A stretch of 36,776 nucleotides of DNA from IMG/VR virus record IMGVR_UViG_3300045988_112955; one strand, 5' to 3'. The notes beneath the pieces were generated by a model, which did not search any database, was not told the DNA's origin, and saw only the letters and a list, made by a program, of their open reading frames with translations. Within the stretch, counting starts at the first letter, position 1. Every line of letters begins with the position of its first letter. The DNA comes from a virus. The translations under genes were made by a program, and so were the position numbers. This document shows positions 6,247 through 36,592 of this stretch, piece after piece.

Positions 6247-7113
6247 CTAACCAAAAACTTCTATAATCATTTCATCAATATCTGCATCAGTTGCATAACT
6301 TAGATTACCGGCACTTGGCATCGTAAAATCCAGTACGGGAGCTTCGGGAGTCCCACGTATTGTTACGTTAGGGTTGCCTAATGTAACATTTCCTATTGTG
6401 ATATTAGGGGTTGCACCCGTAGCACCAACAAAATCACCATTTAATAACTTGGTATTTATTTCAGTTACTTTATCATTACAACTTTTTATTGCTTTTGCGG
6501 TATCATTTTGTCGCTTTATCTCATTTGTTTGGCGGTTAGTTTCATTTTCATTTACAGTATTCTCTAATGTATTAAGTTCATTGAATTTGTTATCTAAGGC
6601 GGTTTGTTGTTCCGCTACCTTAGTCTGTTGTCTCACCGCTTCTTCAATAGCATTTTGGATATCTTTTTTCATTTTATCAAGATCGGGCTTAATGTTTTCA
6701 TTAGTCCAATCTTCACACAACTGTATAACAACTTGTTGCCAGCTTGGTTTATTGTCTAAAAATTCACCATCGCCAACACTTGCAGTTATTTTATATACTA
6801 TTGGGTTGGTTTGTATTACCTCACTATCACGCGCAAAAGAAAAAGCAATAGCGATATATCCATCTAATCTAAATGCTTCTTTAGGAAGTTTAAAAACCCC
6901 ATTGGAATCAATTGCAATAGCATTAGATTTTGTATTTCTATTACTTTCTAAAAATCTATTTTTAATATGTTTAAAAAATGGTGTACAAACATAATTATTA
7001 TATGTTGTATCTCTAATTAACTTCATCTCTATATCACCACTATACTGTGATGGTATTTTTTCTAAATCATACGTTAGTTCTAAACCTTTTTGTGTAATTG
7101 TACTAAATATCAT
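6247..7113 (-). CDS. Baseplate/fibre-associated protein with central coiled coil
   Basis: 288 aa; coiled-coil QQTKVAEQQTALDNKFNELNTLENTVNENETNRQ; C-terminal SYATDADIDEMIIEVFG tag. ATGA overlap with Tal. Confidence 0.55.
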   Translation of the reverse strand: MIFSTITQKGLELTYDLEKIPSQYSGDIEMKLIRDTTYNNYVCTPFFKHIKNRFLESNRNTKSNAIAIDSNGVFKLPKEAFRLDGYIAIAFSFARDSEVIQTNPIVYKITASVGDGEFLDNKPSWQQVVIQLCEDWTNENIKPDLDKMKKDIQNAIEEAVRQQTKVAEQQTALDNKFNELNTLENTVNENETNRQTNEIKRQNDTAKAIKSCNDKVTEINTKLLNGDFVGATGATPNITIGNVTLGNPNVTIRGTPEAPVLDFTMPSAGNLSYATDADIDEMIIEVFG

Positions 7114-32253: not shown

Positions 32254-32664
32254 ATGGATTTCGCTCAACGTGTTAAGCAATTGCGTAAAAATAAACATCT
32301 AACTGGTGAGCAATTGGGTAATATTTTAGGAATCACAAAAACGGGTATTTCATATTGGGAAAATGGTAGAAGTGTTCCCGATAATGAAATGTTATTAAAG
32401 TTAGCTGATTTTTTTGATGTTTCTATCGACTATTTGCTTGGCAAAACTGATATAGAAACAAAAATAGATAAAAGCACTTATTATGGAGACTATGACGAGG
32501 TAGTGGAATATCTTAAAGATAATCCCGAGCATCTTGACGTATATAAGAGAATTTTAAACGATGATCATTTTGCATTACTGTTCGACAAAACAAAGGACCT
32601 AACACCAGAAGAAATAGACGTTATCATTAGCGTTATTATTGGGTTACAAAACGGGAGAAAATAA
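32254..32664 (+). CDS. CI-like XRE-family repressor (ImmR-type)
   Basis: QRVKQLRKNKHLTGEQLGNILGITKTGISYWENGRSVP HTH. RBS AAGGAGGTG. Confidence 0.85.
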   Translation: MDFAQRVKQLRKNKHLTGEQLGNILGITKTGISYWENGRSVPDNEMLLKLADFFDVSIDYLLGKTDIETKIDKSTYYGDYDEVVEYLKDNPEHLDVYKRILNDDHFALLFDKTKDLTPEEIDVIISVIIGLQNGRK

Positions 32665-32680: not shown

Positions 32681-33004
32681 ATGGAGGTCGACGAACTATT
32701 AAAGATGAATTTTGAGGACTTTTGTAGATTTAACAATATAATAATAAGTTTCGATGATATATTACCCACTAAGATAAAGGGTATGTGTGTACATAATGAC
32801 GAATACTACGAAATAATCCTAAATAGCAAGCAAGCAATAAACATACAAAAAGAAGCGTTACTACATGAATTAGTACACGTATTAAAAGACCATTTTTCGC
32901 ACGATTGTACACTTACGCCCGAAGAATGTGACAAAGAAGTAGATAAAATCATAGATAAATTTAAATTTGAAATAGCATCTTGTTTTGATTTATCTATGTT
33001 TTAA
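32681..33004 (+). CDS. ImmA/IrrE-family metalloprotease (anti-repressor protease)
   Basis: HELVHVL HExxH motif. ATG 32681 lies 7 nt after GGAGG. Directly downstream of the repressor, as in immR-immA modules. Confidence 0.75.
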   Translation: MEVDELLKMNFEDFCRFNNIIISFDDILPTKIKGMCVHNDEYYEIILNSKQAINIQKEALLHELVHVLKDHFSHDCTLTPEECDKEVDKIIDKFKFEIASCFDLSMF

Positions 33005-33051: not shown

Positions 33052-33789
33052 ATGGGATTTAAAGACAAACTTAATAATTTAGCAAGTAGCGGTAAAGAAA
33101 TGATGGCTAATGAAATGGCTATTATTAAAAAGCAAAAAAATGAGTTAAGTGTGGCACTAACTTTAAACGAAGGTAAAGAAATTACGGGAAATATGCTTTC
33201 TAATAATGTTAAACTATGGCGACAAAGTGATGGATTGGTATATTTTAATAATCGTGTTGAAAACCTGTATACTGTAGTTGATTACATTTGGGACGGTCCG
33301 ATAATTAAGACAATTACAAAAAGTGAAACTACTGGAACTGAAAAAGGTAGTAGCAAAAGAAAAGGTCGAGGAATTGGCGCAGTAGTCGGTACAATTGTCG
33401 CGCCTGGTATTGGTACAGTAATAGGTGCAGCACATGGTACGGGTAACAAAAAATCTAAAAAGAAAATCCAATCAAACACAATTACATATGATGAAGATAT
33501 AGAGGTAGATGCACAAGCAAGGTTAAAACTTTGTAATGTTGAAACGGGTGAAATTTCTACTATTGGATTTTTATGTAATAGTGAACTAAATTCTAAAATT
33601 ATCAATTTAATTCCAAACGATTTTAGCCAAAATAAGCAAATTGAAAATGATGGACCTATTGATATTGAGGTTGCCGAGGTTGTAAGCGATCCTTACGAGG
33701 AACTAAAAAAGGTCAAAGAATTATTAGATATGGGGATTATTTCTCAAGAAGAATTTGATGCAAAGAAAAAAGAATTATTAGGATTATAA
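33052..33789 (+). CDS. Glycine-zipper membrane protein with C-terminal SHOCT domain
   Basis: GIGAVVGTIVAPGIGTVIGAAHGTG GxxxG array; C-terminal DPYEELKKVKELLDMGIISQEEFDAKKKELLGL (SHOCT). RBS AAAGGGGA. Confidence 0.75.
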   Translation: MGFKDKLNNLASSGKEMMANEMAIIKKQKNELSVALTLNEGKEITGNMLSNNVKLWRQSDGLVYFNNRVENLYTVVDYIWDGPIIKTITKSETTGTEKGSSKRKGRGIGAVVGTIVAPGIGTVIGAAHGTGNKKSKKKIQSNTITYDEDIEVDAQARLKLCNVETGEISTIGFLCNSELNSKIINLIPNDFSQNKQIENDGPIDIEVAEVVSDPYEELKKVKELLDMGIISQEEFDAKKKELLGL

Positions 33790-33800
33790 AATAAAAAATA

Positions 33801-33813
33801 CCACTATTCGCAA
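33801..33813 (+). repeat. CCACTATTCGCAA, near-copy of 35389-35401
   Basis: 13-mer differing at one base from CCACTACTCGCAA. Both are preceded by an A-run and lie on either side of the DUF3800 cassette. Confidence 0.5.
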
Positions 33814-33956
33814 CAACAGTGTTCATAGCAGATTACATTAAACTACTACAGTTAAAAAATAGGATTAGCATACTATTTGAACAAAATTTAGACATATCAA
33901 CTGCGTTAAACACTACGAAGTGTGTTTATATAAAAAATTGAATGGAGAGATAGGAA

Positions 33957-34667
33957 ATGGAATATAATATATACTGCGATGAAAGTTGTCATTTACCAAA
34001 TGACAACAGTAATATAATGGTTATTGGAGCTATTTCTTGTCCTAAGAACAAAGCTTTTTTCATTAATCATGAAATACAAAATATAAAAAGAAAGCACGGT
34101 ATTTTTAAATTTGCTGAAATAAAGTGGACAAAAGTATCTCAATCAAAAATAGAAATGTATAAAGAATTAATAGATTTGTTTTTTGAACATAATTATCTAA
34201 ATTTTAGATGTGTAATAGCCACAAATAAAAATAAGCTAGATCCTAAAAGATTTAATCTTACTTATAATGATTGGTACTATAGAATCTATTATTTGGCTTT
34301 AAAAGAGATGTTAGATATCAGTAATTCTTTTAACATCTATATTGATATCAAAGATACAAATGGACAAGCAAAAATAGAAAAACTACAAGATGTTTTAAAT
34401 AGAACATTATATGATTTTTCTGATAGTACAGTGAAACATATACAAGAAGTTAAATCAGATCAAGTTCAAATTTTACAAATTACTGATCTGTTAATTGGAG
34501 CAATAGGATACTCTAATCGTGGCCTTTGCACTAGCGATGCAAAAGAAAGTTTAATTGATTATGTGTGTGAAAAAGCTCATAGACCACTTAATTACACTAG
34601 CCCTAAAAATGAATTAAAATTTAATATATTTAAATGGGCTCCAAGAGGTTATTACAATGACTTGTGA
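33957..34667 (+). CDS. DUF3800-like protein
   Basis: N-terminal YNIYCDESCH and C-terminal QVQILQITDLLIGAIGYS match the two DUF3800 signatures as I remember them. RBS GGAGAG. Confidence 0.7.
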   Translation: MEYNIYCDESCHLPNDNSNIMVIGAISCPKNKAFFINHEIQNIKRKHGIFKFAEIKWTKVSQSKIEMYKELIDLFFEHNYLNFRCVIATNKNKLDPKRFNLTYNDWYYRIYYLALKEMLDISNSFNIYIDIKDTNGQAKIEKLQDVLNRTLYDFSDSTVKHIQEVKSDQVQILQITDLLIGAIGYSNRGLCTSDAKESLIDYVCEKAHRPLNYTSPKNELKFNIFKWAPRGYYNDL

Positions 34668-35163
34668 TAAAGCACCAAAGATAGTTACTCTTGAAGATTT
34701 TAATGGCGATTATATAAGATATGAGCAAGAAATATATAACCTTTTTTCAAAAGATTTTATTAACAGAAATATATATTTTAAAGGTACTCAAATATCACAC
34801 AAAAAATATCCTAAACACAAAGGTATGTCAGCAACATTTTGGCATATTGTTACTAACGGCGATAACGAAACAAATAGAGAGCCAAACTTAAGAAGATATG
34901 AAACAATATGTTATCCTGCTTTTATTATTGAAGAATGTTCTAATTATTGTTCCAACGTACTAATTTGGGAGAATATTAGAAAGGGTAAAACTCGTATCTT
35001 AATTTACTGTACAACGCTTCGCTATTTAGTTGTACTAGATAAGCGTAGTGACTATATTTTATTTTGGACTTCATACCCAGTAGAATATAAAAATAGACAT
35101 GAAAAACTCATCAATGAATTCAATGAGTATAAAGCAAAAACTGCTAACCAACTTAATGACTAG
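34657..35163 (+). CDS. 168-aa orphan protein translationally coupled to the DUF3800-like gene
   Basis: ATG 34657 lies 11 nt inside the upstream gene, with AAGAGG 8 nt upstream. No family recognised. Confidence 0.7.
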   Translation: MTCDKAPKIVTLEDFNGDYIRYEQEIYNLFSKDFINRNIYFKGTQISHKKYPKHKGMSATFWHIVTNGDNETNREPNLRRYETICYPAFIIEECSNYCSNVLIWENIRKGKTRILIYCTTLRYLVVLDKRSDYILFWTSYPVEYKNRHEKLINEFNEYKAKTANQLND

Positions 35164-35389
35164 CAGTTTCGTTACTCCTTCAACCTATGAATGGTAGATG
35201 AGTTATTCAAAGGAGATTCAGCACTGAATTCCTAATTAATTATATTCAACTTACACCTATATTATACATATCTGTCGCAAATATGCAATACTTTTTCAAT
35301 AATATAAAAATCGAAAAATCATAAAAATCAATACTATAAATATTTAGTAGTGTGATAACGGTAATACCACAAAACAAAATTTAAAAGTC

Positions 35390-35432
35390 CACTACTCGCA
35401 ATAGTGAACTTTCGAGGTACTCGCAATACCTC
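35390..35432 (+). promoter_or_regulatory. Two tandem hairpins with identical heptaloop CTCGCAA
   Basis: CACTA-CTCGCAA-TAGTG (35390-35406) and GAGGTA-CTCGCAA-TACCTC (35414-35432). Equivalently, the 11-mer TACTCGCAATA is repeated at 35393 and 35418. Confidence 0.6.
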
Positions 35433-35487
35433 TTCTCAAATATAAAAGACTGATCAAAGCCTTTTACGTGCTTAATTATAACATTTG

Positions 35488-35527
35488 AACACGTCTAAGG
35501 CAAACAAAGAAAGGACGTGTTTTTATT
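35488..35527 (+). terminator. Hairpin plus T-tract abutting the integrase start and sequestering its RBS
   Basis: AACACGTC (35488-35495) pairs with GACGTGTT (35514-35521), 18-nt loop, then TTTTATT-ATG. The only purine-rich RBS candidate AAGGA (35511-35515) lies in the stem. Confidence 0.5.
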
Positions 35528-36592
35528 ATGGCAAAAGAATACAAAGTTAAAGAGCTTAAAAACGGTGAAAGAAGATACGTATTCGATGTGAATATAGGCT
35601 ATAGAGCGGACGGCAGCAGAATTAGAAAAACTGTTACATCCAAAACTATAAAAGACGGTAGAAAAAAAGTAGCTGAACTATTGCTAGATAGGACTAATCA
35701 AGTCGTTGTAGCTAAAGGACTACTTTTTAAAGATTTATATGATGCATATATTGCTGATTATAAAAATAAAGGACGTTCCCCCTCTACCGTTCGTAATATT
35801 GCTTTTTCTTATAGAAAAAAATATGCAAGATTTGAAAACGTAAGAATCACAAAAATAAATGATTATGATTTAATTGAATGGATTGAAGATTTAAAAAAAG
35901 ATTTATCACCTAATACGGTTAGAATTCGTGAGGGAGCATTAAGCGCATTCTTTAATTGGTGTATAAGAAAAAAGGCGCTTGATCGAAATTCCTTTGTTTA
36001 TATTGATAAAACTAAAACAACCAAGCCTAAACTTGAATTTTGGAACGAGGCACAGTTTAATCAATTTATTTCAAATGTTTCGAACAAAAAACACAAGATT
36101 GCTTTTTGCACCCTATTTTATACTGGATTGCGAAAGGGAGAATTTTGCGGACTTAGCCTATCCGATTTAGACGAAGATAAAAATGAATTGCATTTATCAC
36201 ATACAGTAAAAAATACTAGCAATGGTCTTGTTGTGTCTACAGAGTTTAAAAATGAGCAATCGCGGCGAATAGTACCAATTCCCGATTGGTTGACCCCAAA
36301 TTTAAAAGAAGTCTTAAAAAGCGGGGAATACCCCTACAGAGAGTATTATACATATTTAAACGTTTTGTTATCTAGATACAATGACCCTGCTCTACCAAAA
36401 ATAAGTATACACGGTTTTAGGCATAGCTATATATCTATGTTAATACATGCTAATGTTAATCATTATACTGTTTCTAAAATAGCGGGACATAGCAAAACAA
36501 GTACAACCCTAGATATCTATGGTCACCTCTATCCCGACGAACGTAGACAAGTAACAACAATTTTTAGTGAAAGAAAAAAGGTACTCGAATGA
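35528..36592 (+). CDS. int: Tyrosine integrase
   Basis: Catalytic region GLRKGEF...HGFRHSYISML...GHSKTSTTLDIYGHLYPDE (R..HxxR..Y) with a SAM-like N-terminal domain. Confidence 0.92.
   Translation: MAKEYKVKELKNGERRYVFDVNIGYRADGSRIRKTVTSKTIKDGRKKVAELLLDRTNQVVVAKGLLFKDLYDAYIADYKNKGRSPSTVRNIAFSYRKKYARFENVRITKINDYDLIEWIEDLKKDLSPNTVRIREGALSAFFNWCIRKKALDRNSFVYIDKTKTTKPKLEFWNEAQFNQFISNVSNKKHKIAFCTLFYTGLRKGEFCGLSLSDLDEDKNELHLSHTVKNTSNGLVVSTEFKNEQSRRIVPIPDWLTPNLKEVLKSGEYPYREYYTYLNVLLSRYNDPALPKISIHGFRHSYISMLIHANVNHYTVSKIAGHSKTSTTLDIYGHLYPDERRQVTTIFSERKKVLE

Follow-up and report, generated by a model that had tools for sequence, protein, structure and literature searches.

A two-gene locus in a prophage of Thomasclavelia ramosa belongs, by sequence, to the rlfA-rlfB family of phage P1 (rapA-rapB in phage P7), which is the PADLOC candidate PDC-M04, and together with a convergent small-RNA gene it makes up an accessory cassette of about 1.58 kb (about 33814-35388) that is optional cargo of the lysogeny arm. 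The window referred to below is the whole 36,776-nt stretch of viral DNA that was analysed (IMG/VR record IMGVR_UViG_3300045988_112955). As proposed in the first-pass annotation, two plus-strand ORFs (ORF 1, 33957-34667, 236 aa, rlfA-like, PDC-M04A; ORF 2, 34657-35163, 168 aa, rlfB-like, PDC-M04B) are found between the immunity genes and the tyrosine integrase (35528-36592), and from the repressor to int there are five genes, all co-oriented. Of the immunity pair named in that annotation, the XRE repressor (32254-32664) matches HTH_3 with E=2e-15, and the ORF at 32681-33004, the ImmA-like protease, contains HELVH but matches Peptidase_M78 weakly, below the cut-off (E=0.0014). A SHOCT protein is encoded at 33052-33789, and no promoter-like site was scored on the plus strand between it and rlfA. 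The segment had also been described as AT-rich, which is true yet modest (GC of 0.272 for the gene pair vs 0.322 for the window; 3.5% of equal-sized segments have a GC content as low or lower).

The pair had been taken for an undescribed module with no named counterpart. Both proteins, however, match models of PADLOC PDC-M04 (Payne et al. 2024, 10.1101/2024.01.29.577857) at full length and in the same two-gene order: RlfA matches PDLC04353 (PDC-M04A) with E=7.8e-86 (residues 1-230 on profile positions 1-229 of 232), and RlfB matches PDLC04357 (PDC-M04B) with E=3.6e-56 (residues 1-161 on profile positions 1-159 of 162) as well as ten more M04B models. This assignment is made by protein models only; the PDC-M04 cassette order is FAM_00014>>FAM_00043 (A then B), and the window pair is adjacent in the same order with an 11-nt overlap. 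PDC-M04 itself is a computational candidate without a proposed mechanism, and the RNA gene lies outside the PADLOC protein models. Window RlfA shares 43% identity with P1 RlfA across 97% of its length (tblastn E=1e-57), and window RlfB shares 32% identity with P1 RlfB and P7 RapB (E=2e-13; 82% of length for P1). The names rlfA and rlfB date from the P1 genome annotation, in which the genes (51740-52444 and 52444-52908) have the same order as in the window and also overlap at their stop and start codons.

All full-length RlfB loci (53/53), from Firmicutes, Gammaproteobacteria, Desulfovibrionia and one Bifidobacterium phage, have RlfA as the next gene upstream, in the same orientation (gap -50 to +9 nt), so the co-occurrence of gene 2 homologues with DUF3800 genes that the first-pass annotation had put up for checking was indeed observed. 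Its claim of translational coupling is likewise borne out, since rlfB starts inside rlfA (11-nt overlap), AAGAGG lies 8 nt ahead of the second ATG (CCAAGAGGTTATTACAATG), and RlfB-like ORFs are always found behind an RlfA/DUF3800 ORF. The family, whose protein clusters come from many phyla, is represented in complete genomes of E. coli (at least 121, mostly plasmid-borne); no near relatives came up when the region was compared by megablast with the phage collection.

The product of gene 1 begins with MEYNIYCDESCH and also carries QVQILQITDLLIGAIGYS, as described earlier, and its assignment to DUF3800 holds: it matches PF12686 with E=1.1e-14 (55.8 bits, profile positions 1-148 of 149), above the curated gathering cut-off of 21 bits. 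According to its AF2 model (pLDDT 87.6), RlfA has a type-2 RNase H-like fold; the best Foldseek match is RNase HII 1eke (E=3.8e-5, probability 1.0, TM 0.47-0.49), human RNase H2A and RNase H3 are matched too, and published DUF3800 models agree with this predicted fold (PMC7736814, PMC10910872). The acidic active-site set appears intact by alignment. Residues D8, E9, D130, D133 and D177 are invariant in the homologue alignment, and Q163, S167 and D177 (inside QVQILQITDLLIG) are invariant across 60 RlfA homologues, such that RlfA has both the N-terminal DE (D8-E9) and the C-terminal QxxD-type motif of DUF3800 proteins. RlfA is a putative nuclease.

Gene 2 had been regarded as an orphan, which is incorrect: RlfB, the homologue of P1 RlfB, falls in a family that counts at least 1139 protein clusters and has the conserved motifs TFWH, PDLRRxERI, WxNxR and YLVVL..R..Y.L.WTAY (invariant residues from the alignment), and it matches phrog_16230 with E=2.7e-19. 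No Pfam or NCBIfam match was found for it, and a profile search against the PDB found nothing. Its AF2 model has a pLDDT of 93.9; a Foldseek search of this model against the PDB gave nothing significant (best E=0.13), and a structure search of BFVD returned a single uncharacterised family member. As modelled, RlfB shows no recognisable catalytic or sensor fold, and the fold has no characterised relative. The C-terminal YLVVL...TAY prompted us to consider a BECR/RelE-like RNase, a candidate that is unsupported, as RelE (E=0.24), colicin D (E=0.75) and HigB were matched only non-significantly (E 0.24-1.3, TM 0.2-0.4).

The two-gene composition given in the first-pass annotation overlooked a third conserved part, a predicted small-RNA gene on the minus strand (35133..35254, with inferred transcript ends) that is convergent to rlfB. 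Its parts on the minus strand would be a 5' hairpin at 35233-35213, then the core hairpin CUCAUCUACC...GUUGAAGGAG (35202-35175), which is conserved, and, after the linker UAACG, a terminator-like hairpin (35170-35137) with a U-run behind it; the conserved core reads AGCUCAUCUACC-AUGU-GUAGAAGGAGUAACG, and the MFE fold has three hairpins (z=-2.25). A sigma-70-type promoter is predicted from the sequence on the same strand (35261..35288), with a -35 TTGCAT (35288-35283), a 16-nt spacer and a -10 TATAAT (35266-35261), and the closest relatives (L011 and L012) have TTGCAA-16/17-TATAAT at equal distance from the RNA. Among family loci, 23/33 reach a promoter score of at least 10/12 on the RNA strand, as compared to 2/33 in the reverse-complement control.

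At the level of sequence, the RNA element clearly exists and is conserved. The covariance model has a single match in the window (35122-35215, minus strand, 66.1 bits, E=1.5e-20), and the element is present in 36 out of 37 assessable rlfAB loci across phyla, P1 included (just beyond rlfB, convergent as in the window), with constant orientation and spacing across very distant hosts and also in chromosomal loci adjacent to restriction-modification (RM) genes. Canonical pairs make up 95.5% of the pairings and 15 of the 21 pairs show compensatory changes; 0/500 shuffles reach 95.5%, and the slid controls give 41-54%. The strand is indicated by 96 G-U pairs on the RNA-sense strand vs 6 on the opposite one. 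An SD-like GAAGGAG, sequestered in a hairpin, is conserved from Bifidobacterium phages to P1. The small RNA is unannotated in P1 and RefSeq; a scan of the whole window and 17 related loci against Rfam 15 gave no relevant match at the gathering score, and no family of Rfam 15 matches the RNA locus (190-nt query) at any E-value up to 10. We also considered that the region might encode a small ORF and rejected this, as neither strand has a conserved start codon or reading frame.

The RNA is not confined to rlfAB. About 64 of 102 RNA-positive phage loci (~60%) have no RlfA/B within 2.5 kb; there the RNA is found beside Fic or Abi_2 cargo, to which it is convergent, and at module junctions, with terminase, endolysin, integrase, structural genes and regulators as neighbours. 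Because so many RNA-positive contigs are without RlfA/B, the RNA may be a general phage element. Taken further, these rlfAB-free loci and their neighbours, together with the resemblance of the second hairpin and U-run to a terminator, would fit an RNA unrelated to rlfAB, i.e., a generic phage small RNA or an insulating terminator at module junctions, leaving the cassette a two-gene system. We consider this unlikely: the nearly constant presence, orientation and spacing of the RNA at rlfAB loci (P1 and RM-adjacent loci included) argue against it, as do its gain or loss with rlfAB in this prophage lineage, its own promoter at a fixed distance, and the conservation of the core sequence and of C-G/G-C pairs in the "terminator" beyond what termination needs. 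At the other end lies the tentative reading, possible but still rather doubtful, that the RNA is a functional third subunit, an undescribed phage RNA family that would serve interchangeable effectors (RlfA-RlfB, Fic, Abi_2, DUF1828/1829). It could then be a shared sensor or brake, e.g. one that releases a silenced effector once infection perturbs the RNA, or alternatively a cofactor or substrate of the RNase H-like RlfA, and the SD-like GAAGGAG could contact a universal host component, e.g. the ribosome.

In the window, the 3' end of the RNA extends over the stop codon of rlfB and roughly its last 9 codons. Such a 3'-overlapping arrangement is known from type I toxin-antitoxin systems, and addiction modules are common on plasmid prophages, of which P1 is one. 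RlfA and/or RlfB might accordingly be toxic, with the small RNA as an antidote acting on the mRNA (type I) or on the protein (type III) and phage exclusion as a side effect of toxin release; two proteins and an RNA that are mobile as one unit, the convergent RNA whose 3' end overlaps that of rlfB in the window clade, and the presence of the same RNA convergent to the potentially toxic Fic and Abi_2 genes would all suit such a module. In most loci, however, the RNA ends 30-50 nt beyond the rlfB stop and hence has no overlap with rlfB, and therefore antisense control cannot be the conserved mechanism. The RNA is moreover conserved across phyla regardless of its neighbour, often beside non-toxic terminase, endolysin or structural genes. 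The tandem repeats of ToxIN-like type III systems are absent (a single RNA copy, and no tandem repeats in 33700-35600), and RlfB has no significant structural match to known RNase toxins. We regard a toxin-antitoxin-like module as quite improbable.

The borders of the cassette could be read from relatives of the prophage that do not have it. Near-identical 13-mers at 33801 and 35389 had been taken to suggest a cargo insertion; they are the sole two matches in the window with at most 1 mismatch (0.03 expected), a pattern that was picked post hoc and for which the cassette-less relatives provide an independent test. Three prophages (L180, L181 and L187) have integrases that are 98-99% identical and immunity arms that are 97-99% identical to those of the window, and rlfA, rlfB and the RNA gene are absent together from them. 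Their similarity to the window breaks off at 33805-33815 and is picked up again at 35376-35460, and their empty site holds a single hairpin copy, GATCACTG-CTCGCAA-CAGTGATC, containing the 13-mer, which supports the insertion. In the window, the left boundary is a degenerate copy of this backbone hairpin (33801..33820, CCACTATTCGCAACAACAGTG, including the first 13-mer), and the right boundary is an intact copy (35389..35406, C CACTA-CTCGCAA-TAGTG, including the second 13-mer). The cassette is thus mobile, with its three parts travelling together. The twin hairpins have identical CTCGCAA loops; read on the minus strand, they close into longer hairpins that have GCG triloops and a U-run behind them. 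Because the cassette-less relatives have CTCGCAA-loop hairpins too, we assign the twin hairpins to the phage backbone upstream of int; the idea that they are an "anticodon-loop mimic" was dropped for the same reason. For this lineage we rejected the idea that a mobile rlfAB had landed at a pre-existing RNA gene, as the empty site is without the RNA as well.

Our most likely reading, which we judge to have about an even chance of being right, is that this is a nuclease-based accessory defence or exclusion cassette of the lysogen with an RNA part. The lysogen would then draw anti-phage or superinfection-exclusion activity from the cassette. RlfA would be its effector, a nuclease with RNA or RNA-DNA hybrids as targets, RlfB the obligate partner of RlfA for specificity or sensing, and the small RNA a regulator or cofactor. 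The RNA may restrain the expression or activity of rlfAB via convergent transcription and its terminator, or it may bind the proteins; any protein-RNA contact is conjectural. In the lysogen, transcripts reading through from the immunity operon would probably provide for rlfAB expression, in keeping with the co-oriented genes from the repressor to int and the lack of a scored plus-strand promoter between SHOCT and rlfA. The contexts of the family make a defence role plausible, and from them we infer the function of the cassette itself: PDC-M04 was nominated, on independent grounds, because it occurs embedded within BREX, DISARM or type I RM loci (679 in its table row; 10.1101/2024.01.29.577857), a type IIG RM enzyme and also a type I REase are found among the neighbours of chromosomal rlfAB loci, and the same RNA accompanies Abi_2 and Fic cargo elsewhere. 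In loci L050 and L052, RM enzymes (assigned by ORF size) most likely end at rlfA. We found no published experimental test of PDC-M04 or rlfAB, and no paper mentions PDC-M04 in its main text.

P1 offers a different setting. There the pair lies beside the lytic replicon of an E. coli plasmid prophage, whereas the window prophage is integrated in a Firmicute and has the pair in its repressor-to-integrase arm; in P1, rlfAB is downstream of a C1 operator (Orlf) and beside kilA-repL, and is annotated as possibly tied to lytic replication. Being behind a C1 operator, P1 rlfAB should therefore be repressed in the lysogen, which is at odds with lysogen expression as a general rule. RlfA and RlfB could instead be lytic-cycle helpers that, during lytic growth, process phage transcripts or else the RNA primers or R-loops of the phage replication origin. 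The P1/P7 genes are directly downstream of kilA-repL/oriL, a P1 transcriptome study places rlfA/B among the early replication genes, and a type-2 RNase H fold would fit primer or R-loop removal; the RlfB family is also labelled "replication protein" by PHROGs, but the P1 annotation is the most likely source of this label. Yet rlfA and rlfB of P1 are non-essential for lytic growth by CRISPRi (a result that is silent on defence), other ORFs replace the pair in P1-like plasmids, and the pair is variably present among prophages that are 97-99% identical in this arm. The window pair is moreover outside the replication module, and at the chromosomal loci RM genes, but no phage genes, were detected next to the pair. 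On balance a role in lytic growth seems to us of low probability, and the lysogen-serving cassette is the reading that we retain.

Among named defence systems, DUF3800 is an accessory domain in type VII retrons and Cas12a2/Cas12a3 loci, and the DUF3800 proteins found there share with RlfA the Pfam domain, the predicted RNase H2-like fold and the N-terminal DE motif; these loci are also defence contexts associated with non-coding RNA, as with rlfAB. In contrast to them, this locus has no reverse transcriptase (RT), msr/msd, TPR domain, Cas gene or CRISPR array, RlfA retains the C-terminal Q..D signature (Q163, D177) that is absent from the retron VII proteins, and its partner is RlfB. In testing for a type VII retron, we scanned the ORFs next to the pair and found no RT domain; in the window there was no Rfam match to a retron- or RT-associated family, and the called genes of a near-identical copy of the prophage arm (L003) include no RT. 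The DUF3800-associated RNA motifs of Weinberg 2017 (DUF3800-I to XI, drum, skipping-rope; PMC5737381) are structured RNAs that adjoin DUF3800 genes in either orientation, several with an intrinsic terminator behind, like the window RNA. Unlike these motifs, the window RNA also occurs without any DUF3800 gene; it matches no Rfam 15 model (DUF3800-I and DUF3800-IX included), though one of the motifs II-XI that are outside Rfam could conceivably be identical to it.

The gene pair itself is not new, being a further member of the P1 rlfAB / PADLOC PDC-M04 family, which has no known function despite its place in one of the best-studied phages. What is new here is a strongly covarying small-RNA gene with its own predicted promoter, unannotated until now, and a testable anatomy in which an obligate pair of an RNase H-like protein and RlfB is accompanied by an RNA gene, with exact borders set by natural prophages with and without the cassette. 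The small RNA ties the rlfAB family to the puzzle of DUF3800 genes that are accompanied by structured RNAs (Weinberg 2017). If the RNA is a working part, PDC-M04 models and two-ORF cloning may miss a required component, and P1 genetics would be a quick route to the mechanism; were it a third subunit, rlfAB/PDC-M04 would be an RNA-dependent defence system open to direct study in phage P1.

Two plus-strand ORFs lie between the repressor region and the integrase of this Thomasclavelia ramosa prophage: gene 1 (33957-34667, 236 aa) and gene 2 (34657-35163, 168 aa), which overlap by 11 nt, with AAGAGG located 8 nt 5' of the second ATG, as the first-pass annotation had described. The pair and its neighbors, namely an XRE repressor (32254-32664), a small HELVH protein (32681-33004), a SHOCT-domain protein (33052-33789) and a tyrosine integrase (35528-36592), are all encoded on the plus strand, with divergent cro-like and lytic genes on the minus strand. 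Gene 2 has a 99%-identical copy in a T. ramosa chromosome, where the arm ends with the integrase and host genes lie beyond, so the window reaches the prophage end here. The pair is AT-rich, as had been noted (GC 0.272 vs 0.322 in the window; equal-sized windows reach a value this low or lower in 3.5% of cases). The HELVH protein (short, 107 aa counted from the ATG) had been called ImmA-like; the motif is present, but the Peptidase_M78 match is weak and below the Pfam cut-off (18.9 vs 22 bits), and its identity as ImmA is plausible from its position adjoining the repressor, though not established. Between the ImmA-like and SHOCT genes, two close relatives have an additional 168-aa ORF without a Pfam match (L004 7871-8377 and L005 2876-3382). 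This is a second variable cargo slot of the same lysogeny arm, and the ORF is missing from the window and from the compared locus L003.

Gene 1 is a DUF3800 protein (PF12686, E=1.1e-14), and the two products match the PADLOC models for the candidate defence system PDC-M04 over their full length (A, E=7.8e-86; B, E=3.6e-56). Among annotated phages, tblastn identified homologues in P1 (RlfA, 43% identity over 97%; RlfB, 32% over 82%), in P7 (RapA/RapB) and in Bifidobacterium phage Bbif-1 (both proteins). The earlier statement that the pair belongs to no named system is thus incorrect. Nor is gene 2 an orphan: its family comprises at least 1139 clusters at E<=1e-5, and no Pfam domain is assigned to any of them. 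In the P1 record, rlfA and rlfB are adjacent and overlapping, downstream of kilA-repL and a C1 operator, with the note 'possibly associated with lytic replication'. A genome-wide CRISPRi screen found neither P1 gene to be essential, and some P1-like plasmids have other ORFs in their place. The 145 PDCs are computational candidates, nominated because their genes sit inside BREX, DISARM or type I RM loci (Payne et al. 2024, bioRxiv 10.1101/2024.01.29.577857); the published table gives PDC-M04 as cassette CAS_00034, with 679 in its row. Our literature search found no experimental test of PDC-M04 or rlfAB. The cassette is thus a further member of a catalogued family without assigned function.

In all 53 loci with full-length RlfB (sampled across annotated phages, assembly look-ups, IMG/VR and a GTDB set with one genome for each species), the ORF immediately 5' of rlfB is RlfA-like and co-oriented, at a gap of -50 to +9 nt, which supports both the proposed translational coupling and the co-occurrence of gene 2 with DUF3800 genes; RlfA is absent upstream only at four RlfB remnants (truncated ORFs). 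Hosts include Lachnospiraceae, Clostridia, Erysipelotrichales, Legionella, Haemophilus, Orbus, Oleidesulfovibrio, Atribacterota, E. coli (P1) and Bifidobacterium. The settings are varied, many of them prophage arms adjoining tyrosine or serine recombinases. At 13 chromosomal loci, the neighbors include three integrases, two DUF3987 proteins, an HmaA/DrmD-like helicase, one type IIG RM enzyme and one type I restriction enzyme (these two assigned, by ORF size, to large ORFs ending at rlfA in L050 and L052); the remainder are housekeeping genes.

The RlfA model (pLDDT 87.6) matches type-2 RNase H (1eke, E=3.8e-5, probability 1.0) as well as human RNase H2A and RNase H3. Residues D8, E9, D130, D133, Q163 and D177 are invariant among 60 homologues, a set compatible with an active DEDD-type site, and an RNase H-type reading is in line with published statements on DUF3800 (PMC7736814, PMC10910872). 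The RlfB model (pLDDT 93.9) has no significant match among PDB structures (best E=0.13), a PDB profile search with RlfB returned nothing, and its sole match in BFVD is one uncharacterised family member; its invariant residues include H63, R79, E82, W104, R108, Y123 and T138.

Near-identical 13-mers around the pair had been taken as the borders of a cargo insertion, and comparison with relatives bears this out. Three loci (L180, L181 and L187) have an integrase 98-99% identical and a cI-immA-SHOCT arm 97-99% identical to those of the window prophage, and lack the segment ~33814-35388, i.e., rlfA, rlfB and a small-RNA gene. At their empty site, a single hairpin (GATCACTG-CTCGCAA-CAGTGATC) precedes a second one; the former occurs twice in the window, as a degenerate left copy (33801-33820) and an intact right copy (35389-35406), so the 13-mers are a duplicated hairpin flanking the insert. 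The SHOCT gene directly upstream is kept in the cassette-less relatives and is thus outside the insert; its 245-aa product combines a glycine-zipper-like stretch with a SHOCT domain at the C-terminus (E=8.5e-10), and matches PHROGs families without assigned function.

Two tandem hairpins, one of them that duplicated at the cassette borders, lie ~100 nt upstream of the recombinase gene (window 35370-35468, minus strand; L187 4855-4905; L010 ~1553-1600; L012 1634-1683), and since cassette-less relatives have them too, they belong to the phage backbone. Within a locus, the two hairpins share their central 7 nt and differ in their stems (CACTA-CTCGCAA-TAGTG and GAGGTA-CTCGCAA-TACCTC in the window; CTACCAA twice in L010; TTACCAG twice in L012, beside a serine recombinase). 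On the minus strand the window copies form a very stable fold (MFE -31.7, z=-5.1) ending in a U-run, with a good promoter match (35503..35475, TTGCCT-17-TATAAT with TG) directly upstream. Possible roles are a second small transcript from the minus strand, a tandem terminator that insulates int, or a hot spot for recombination. Downstream of rlfAB and the RNA in the relative L011, six 10-nt tandem repeats (GTAACGAAAA-like, 1668-1730) that look like iterons take the place of a recombinase gene. In viral contig L020, a group II intron domain (6793-6869; Rfam RF00029, 46 bits) lies ~270 nt past rlfB and the RNA.

Because structured RNAs are known to accompany DUF3800 genes (Weinberg et al. 2017, PMC5737381), we examined the 364-nt spacer 3' of gene 2, where an Rfam search found nothing. 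Across diverged loci, the block directly 3' of the rlfB stop is more conserved than the proteins. In 36 of 37 assessable loci, including P1 and Bbif-1, the strand opposite rlfB has the same layout: a sigma-70 promoter, AGCUCAUCUACC-AUGU-GUAGAAGGAGUAACG, a variable GC-rich hairpin and a U-run (the element is inverted in one locus, L027). Degraded rlfB remnants (L055-L058) still have the element next to them, and it is also retained at L059, which has just a short RlfB-like match. RNAalifold predicts two hairpins with compensatory changes in 15 of 21 pairs; canonical pairing holds in 95.5% of cells (41-54% in slid controls), and none of 500 shuffles matched the covariation on any of five measures. 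The transcribed strand is identified by its excess of G-U pairs: 641/671 pairs are canonical in the RNA sense, including 96 G-U, vs 551/671 in the rlfB sense, including 6 G-U. Promoter matches of at least 10/12 are found on the RNA strand in 23/33 loci vs 2/33 on the control strand, and the end of the -10 box is at a constant distance from the RNA core in 18 loci.

By covariance model, the window contains a single copy (35122-35215, minus strand, 66 bits, E=1.5e-20). The predicted RNA of ~120 nt runs from 35254 to 35133 on the minus strand, has an additional 5' hairpin in the window clade, and is preceded by a predicted promoter (35288-35261, minus strand, TTGCAT-16-TATAAT) further upstream than in other loci. 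In this clade the terminator hairpin of the RNA extends over the rlfB stop codon; most loci lack such an overlap, so antisense control cannot be the general mode. Conservation of the core, and of C-G/G-C pairs in the second hairpin, suggests that a protein or a universal host factor recognises the RNA. No Rfam 15 family, including the DUF3800 motifs in that release, matches the locus even at E up to 10, and no annotation is present at this position in the P1 record or in RefSeq (121 E. coli genomes).

Scanning IMG/VR with a pattern of the RNA core gave at least 120 stretches, nearly all full-length by the covariance model. Among the matches listed, ~40 loci have an adjacent convergent rlfB and ~64 have no RlfA/B within 2.5 kb; in the latter the RNA sits where modules meet, close to genes for terminase subunits, integrases, endolysins and regulators, and other cargo is sometimes convergent to it (Fic, Abi_2, DUF1828+DUF1829). 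rlfAB is thus nearly always found with the RNA, and the RNA is also found beside other genes. The RNA might be a pre-existing landing site for cargo, but in the window prophage lineage it is gained or lost jointly with rlfAB, which argues against this. Some phages have two RNA copies per contig (L074, L082, L084, L144 and L171, within L060-L179). In several loci a same-strand gene ends at the 5' edge of the RNA (e.g. a GH25 endolysin in L098 and an ASCH protein in L121), so the RNA there may be a 3'-UTR element instead of an independent gene.

The most likely reading is a three-part accessory cassette serving defence or exclusion, with RlfA as a putative nuclease, because of its cargo behaviour, its lysogeny-arm position, the embedding evidence behind the PADLOC nomination and the RM-adjacent instances, and because DUF3800 is used in retron VII and Cas12a2/a3 loci. 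The chief counter-evidence is the P1 pair, which adjoins the lytic replicon downstream of the C1 operator. The first-pass interpretation of a coupled pair inserted as cargo, with a plausible defence role, holds in part: it overlooked the PDC-M04/P1 naming and took gene 2 for an orphan. The conserved RNA gene is the part of the cassette that looks new, and it gives the rlfAB family experimental tractability.
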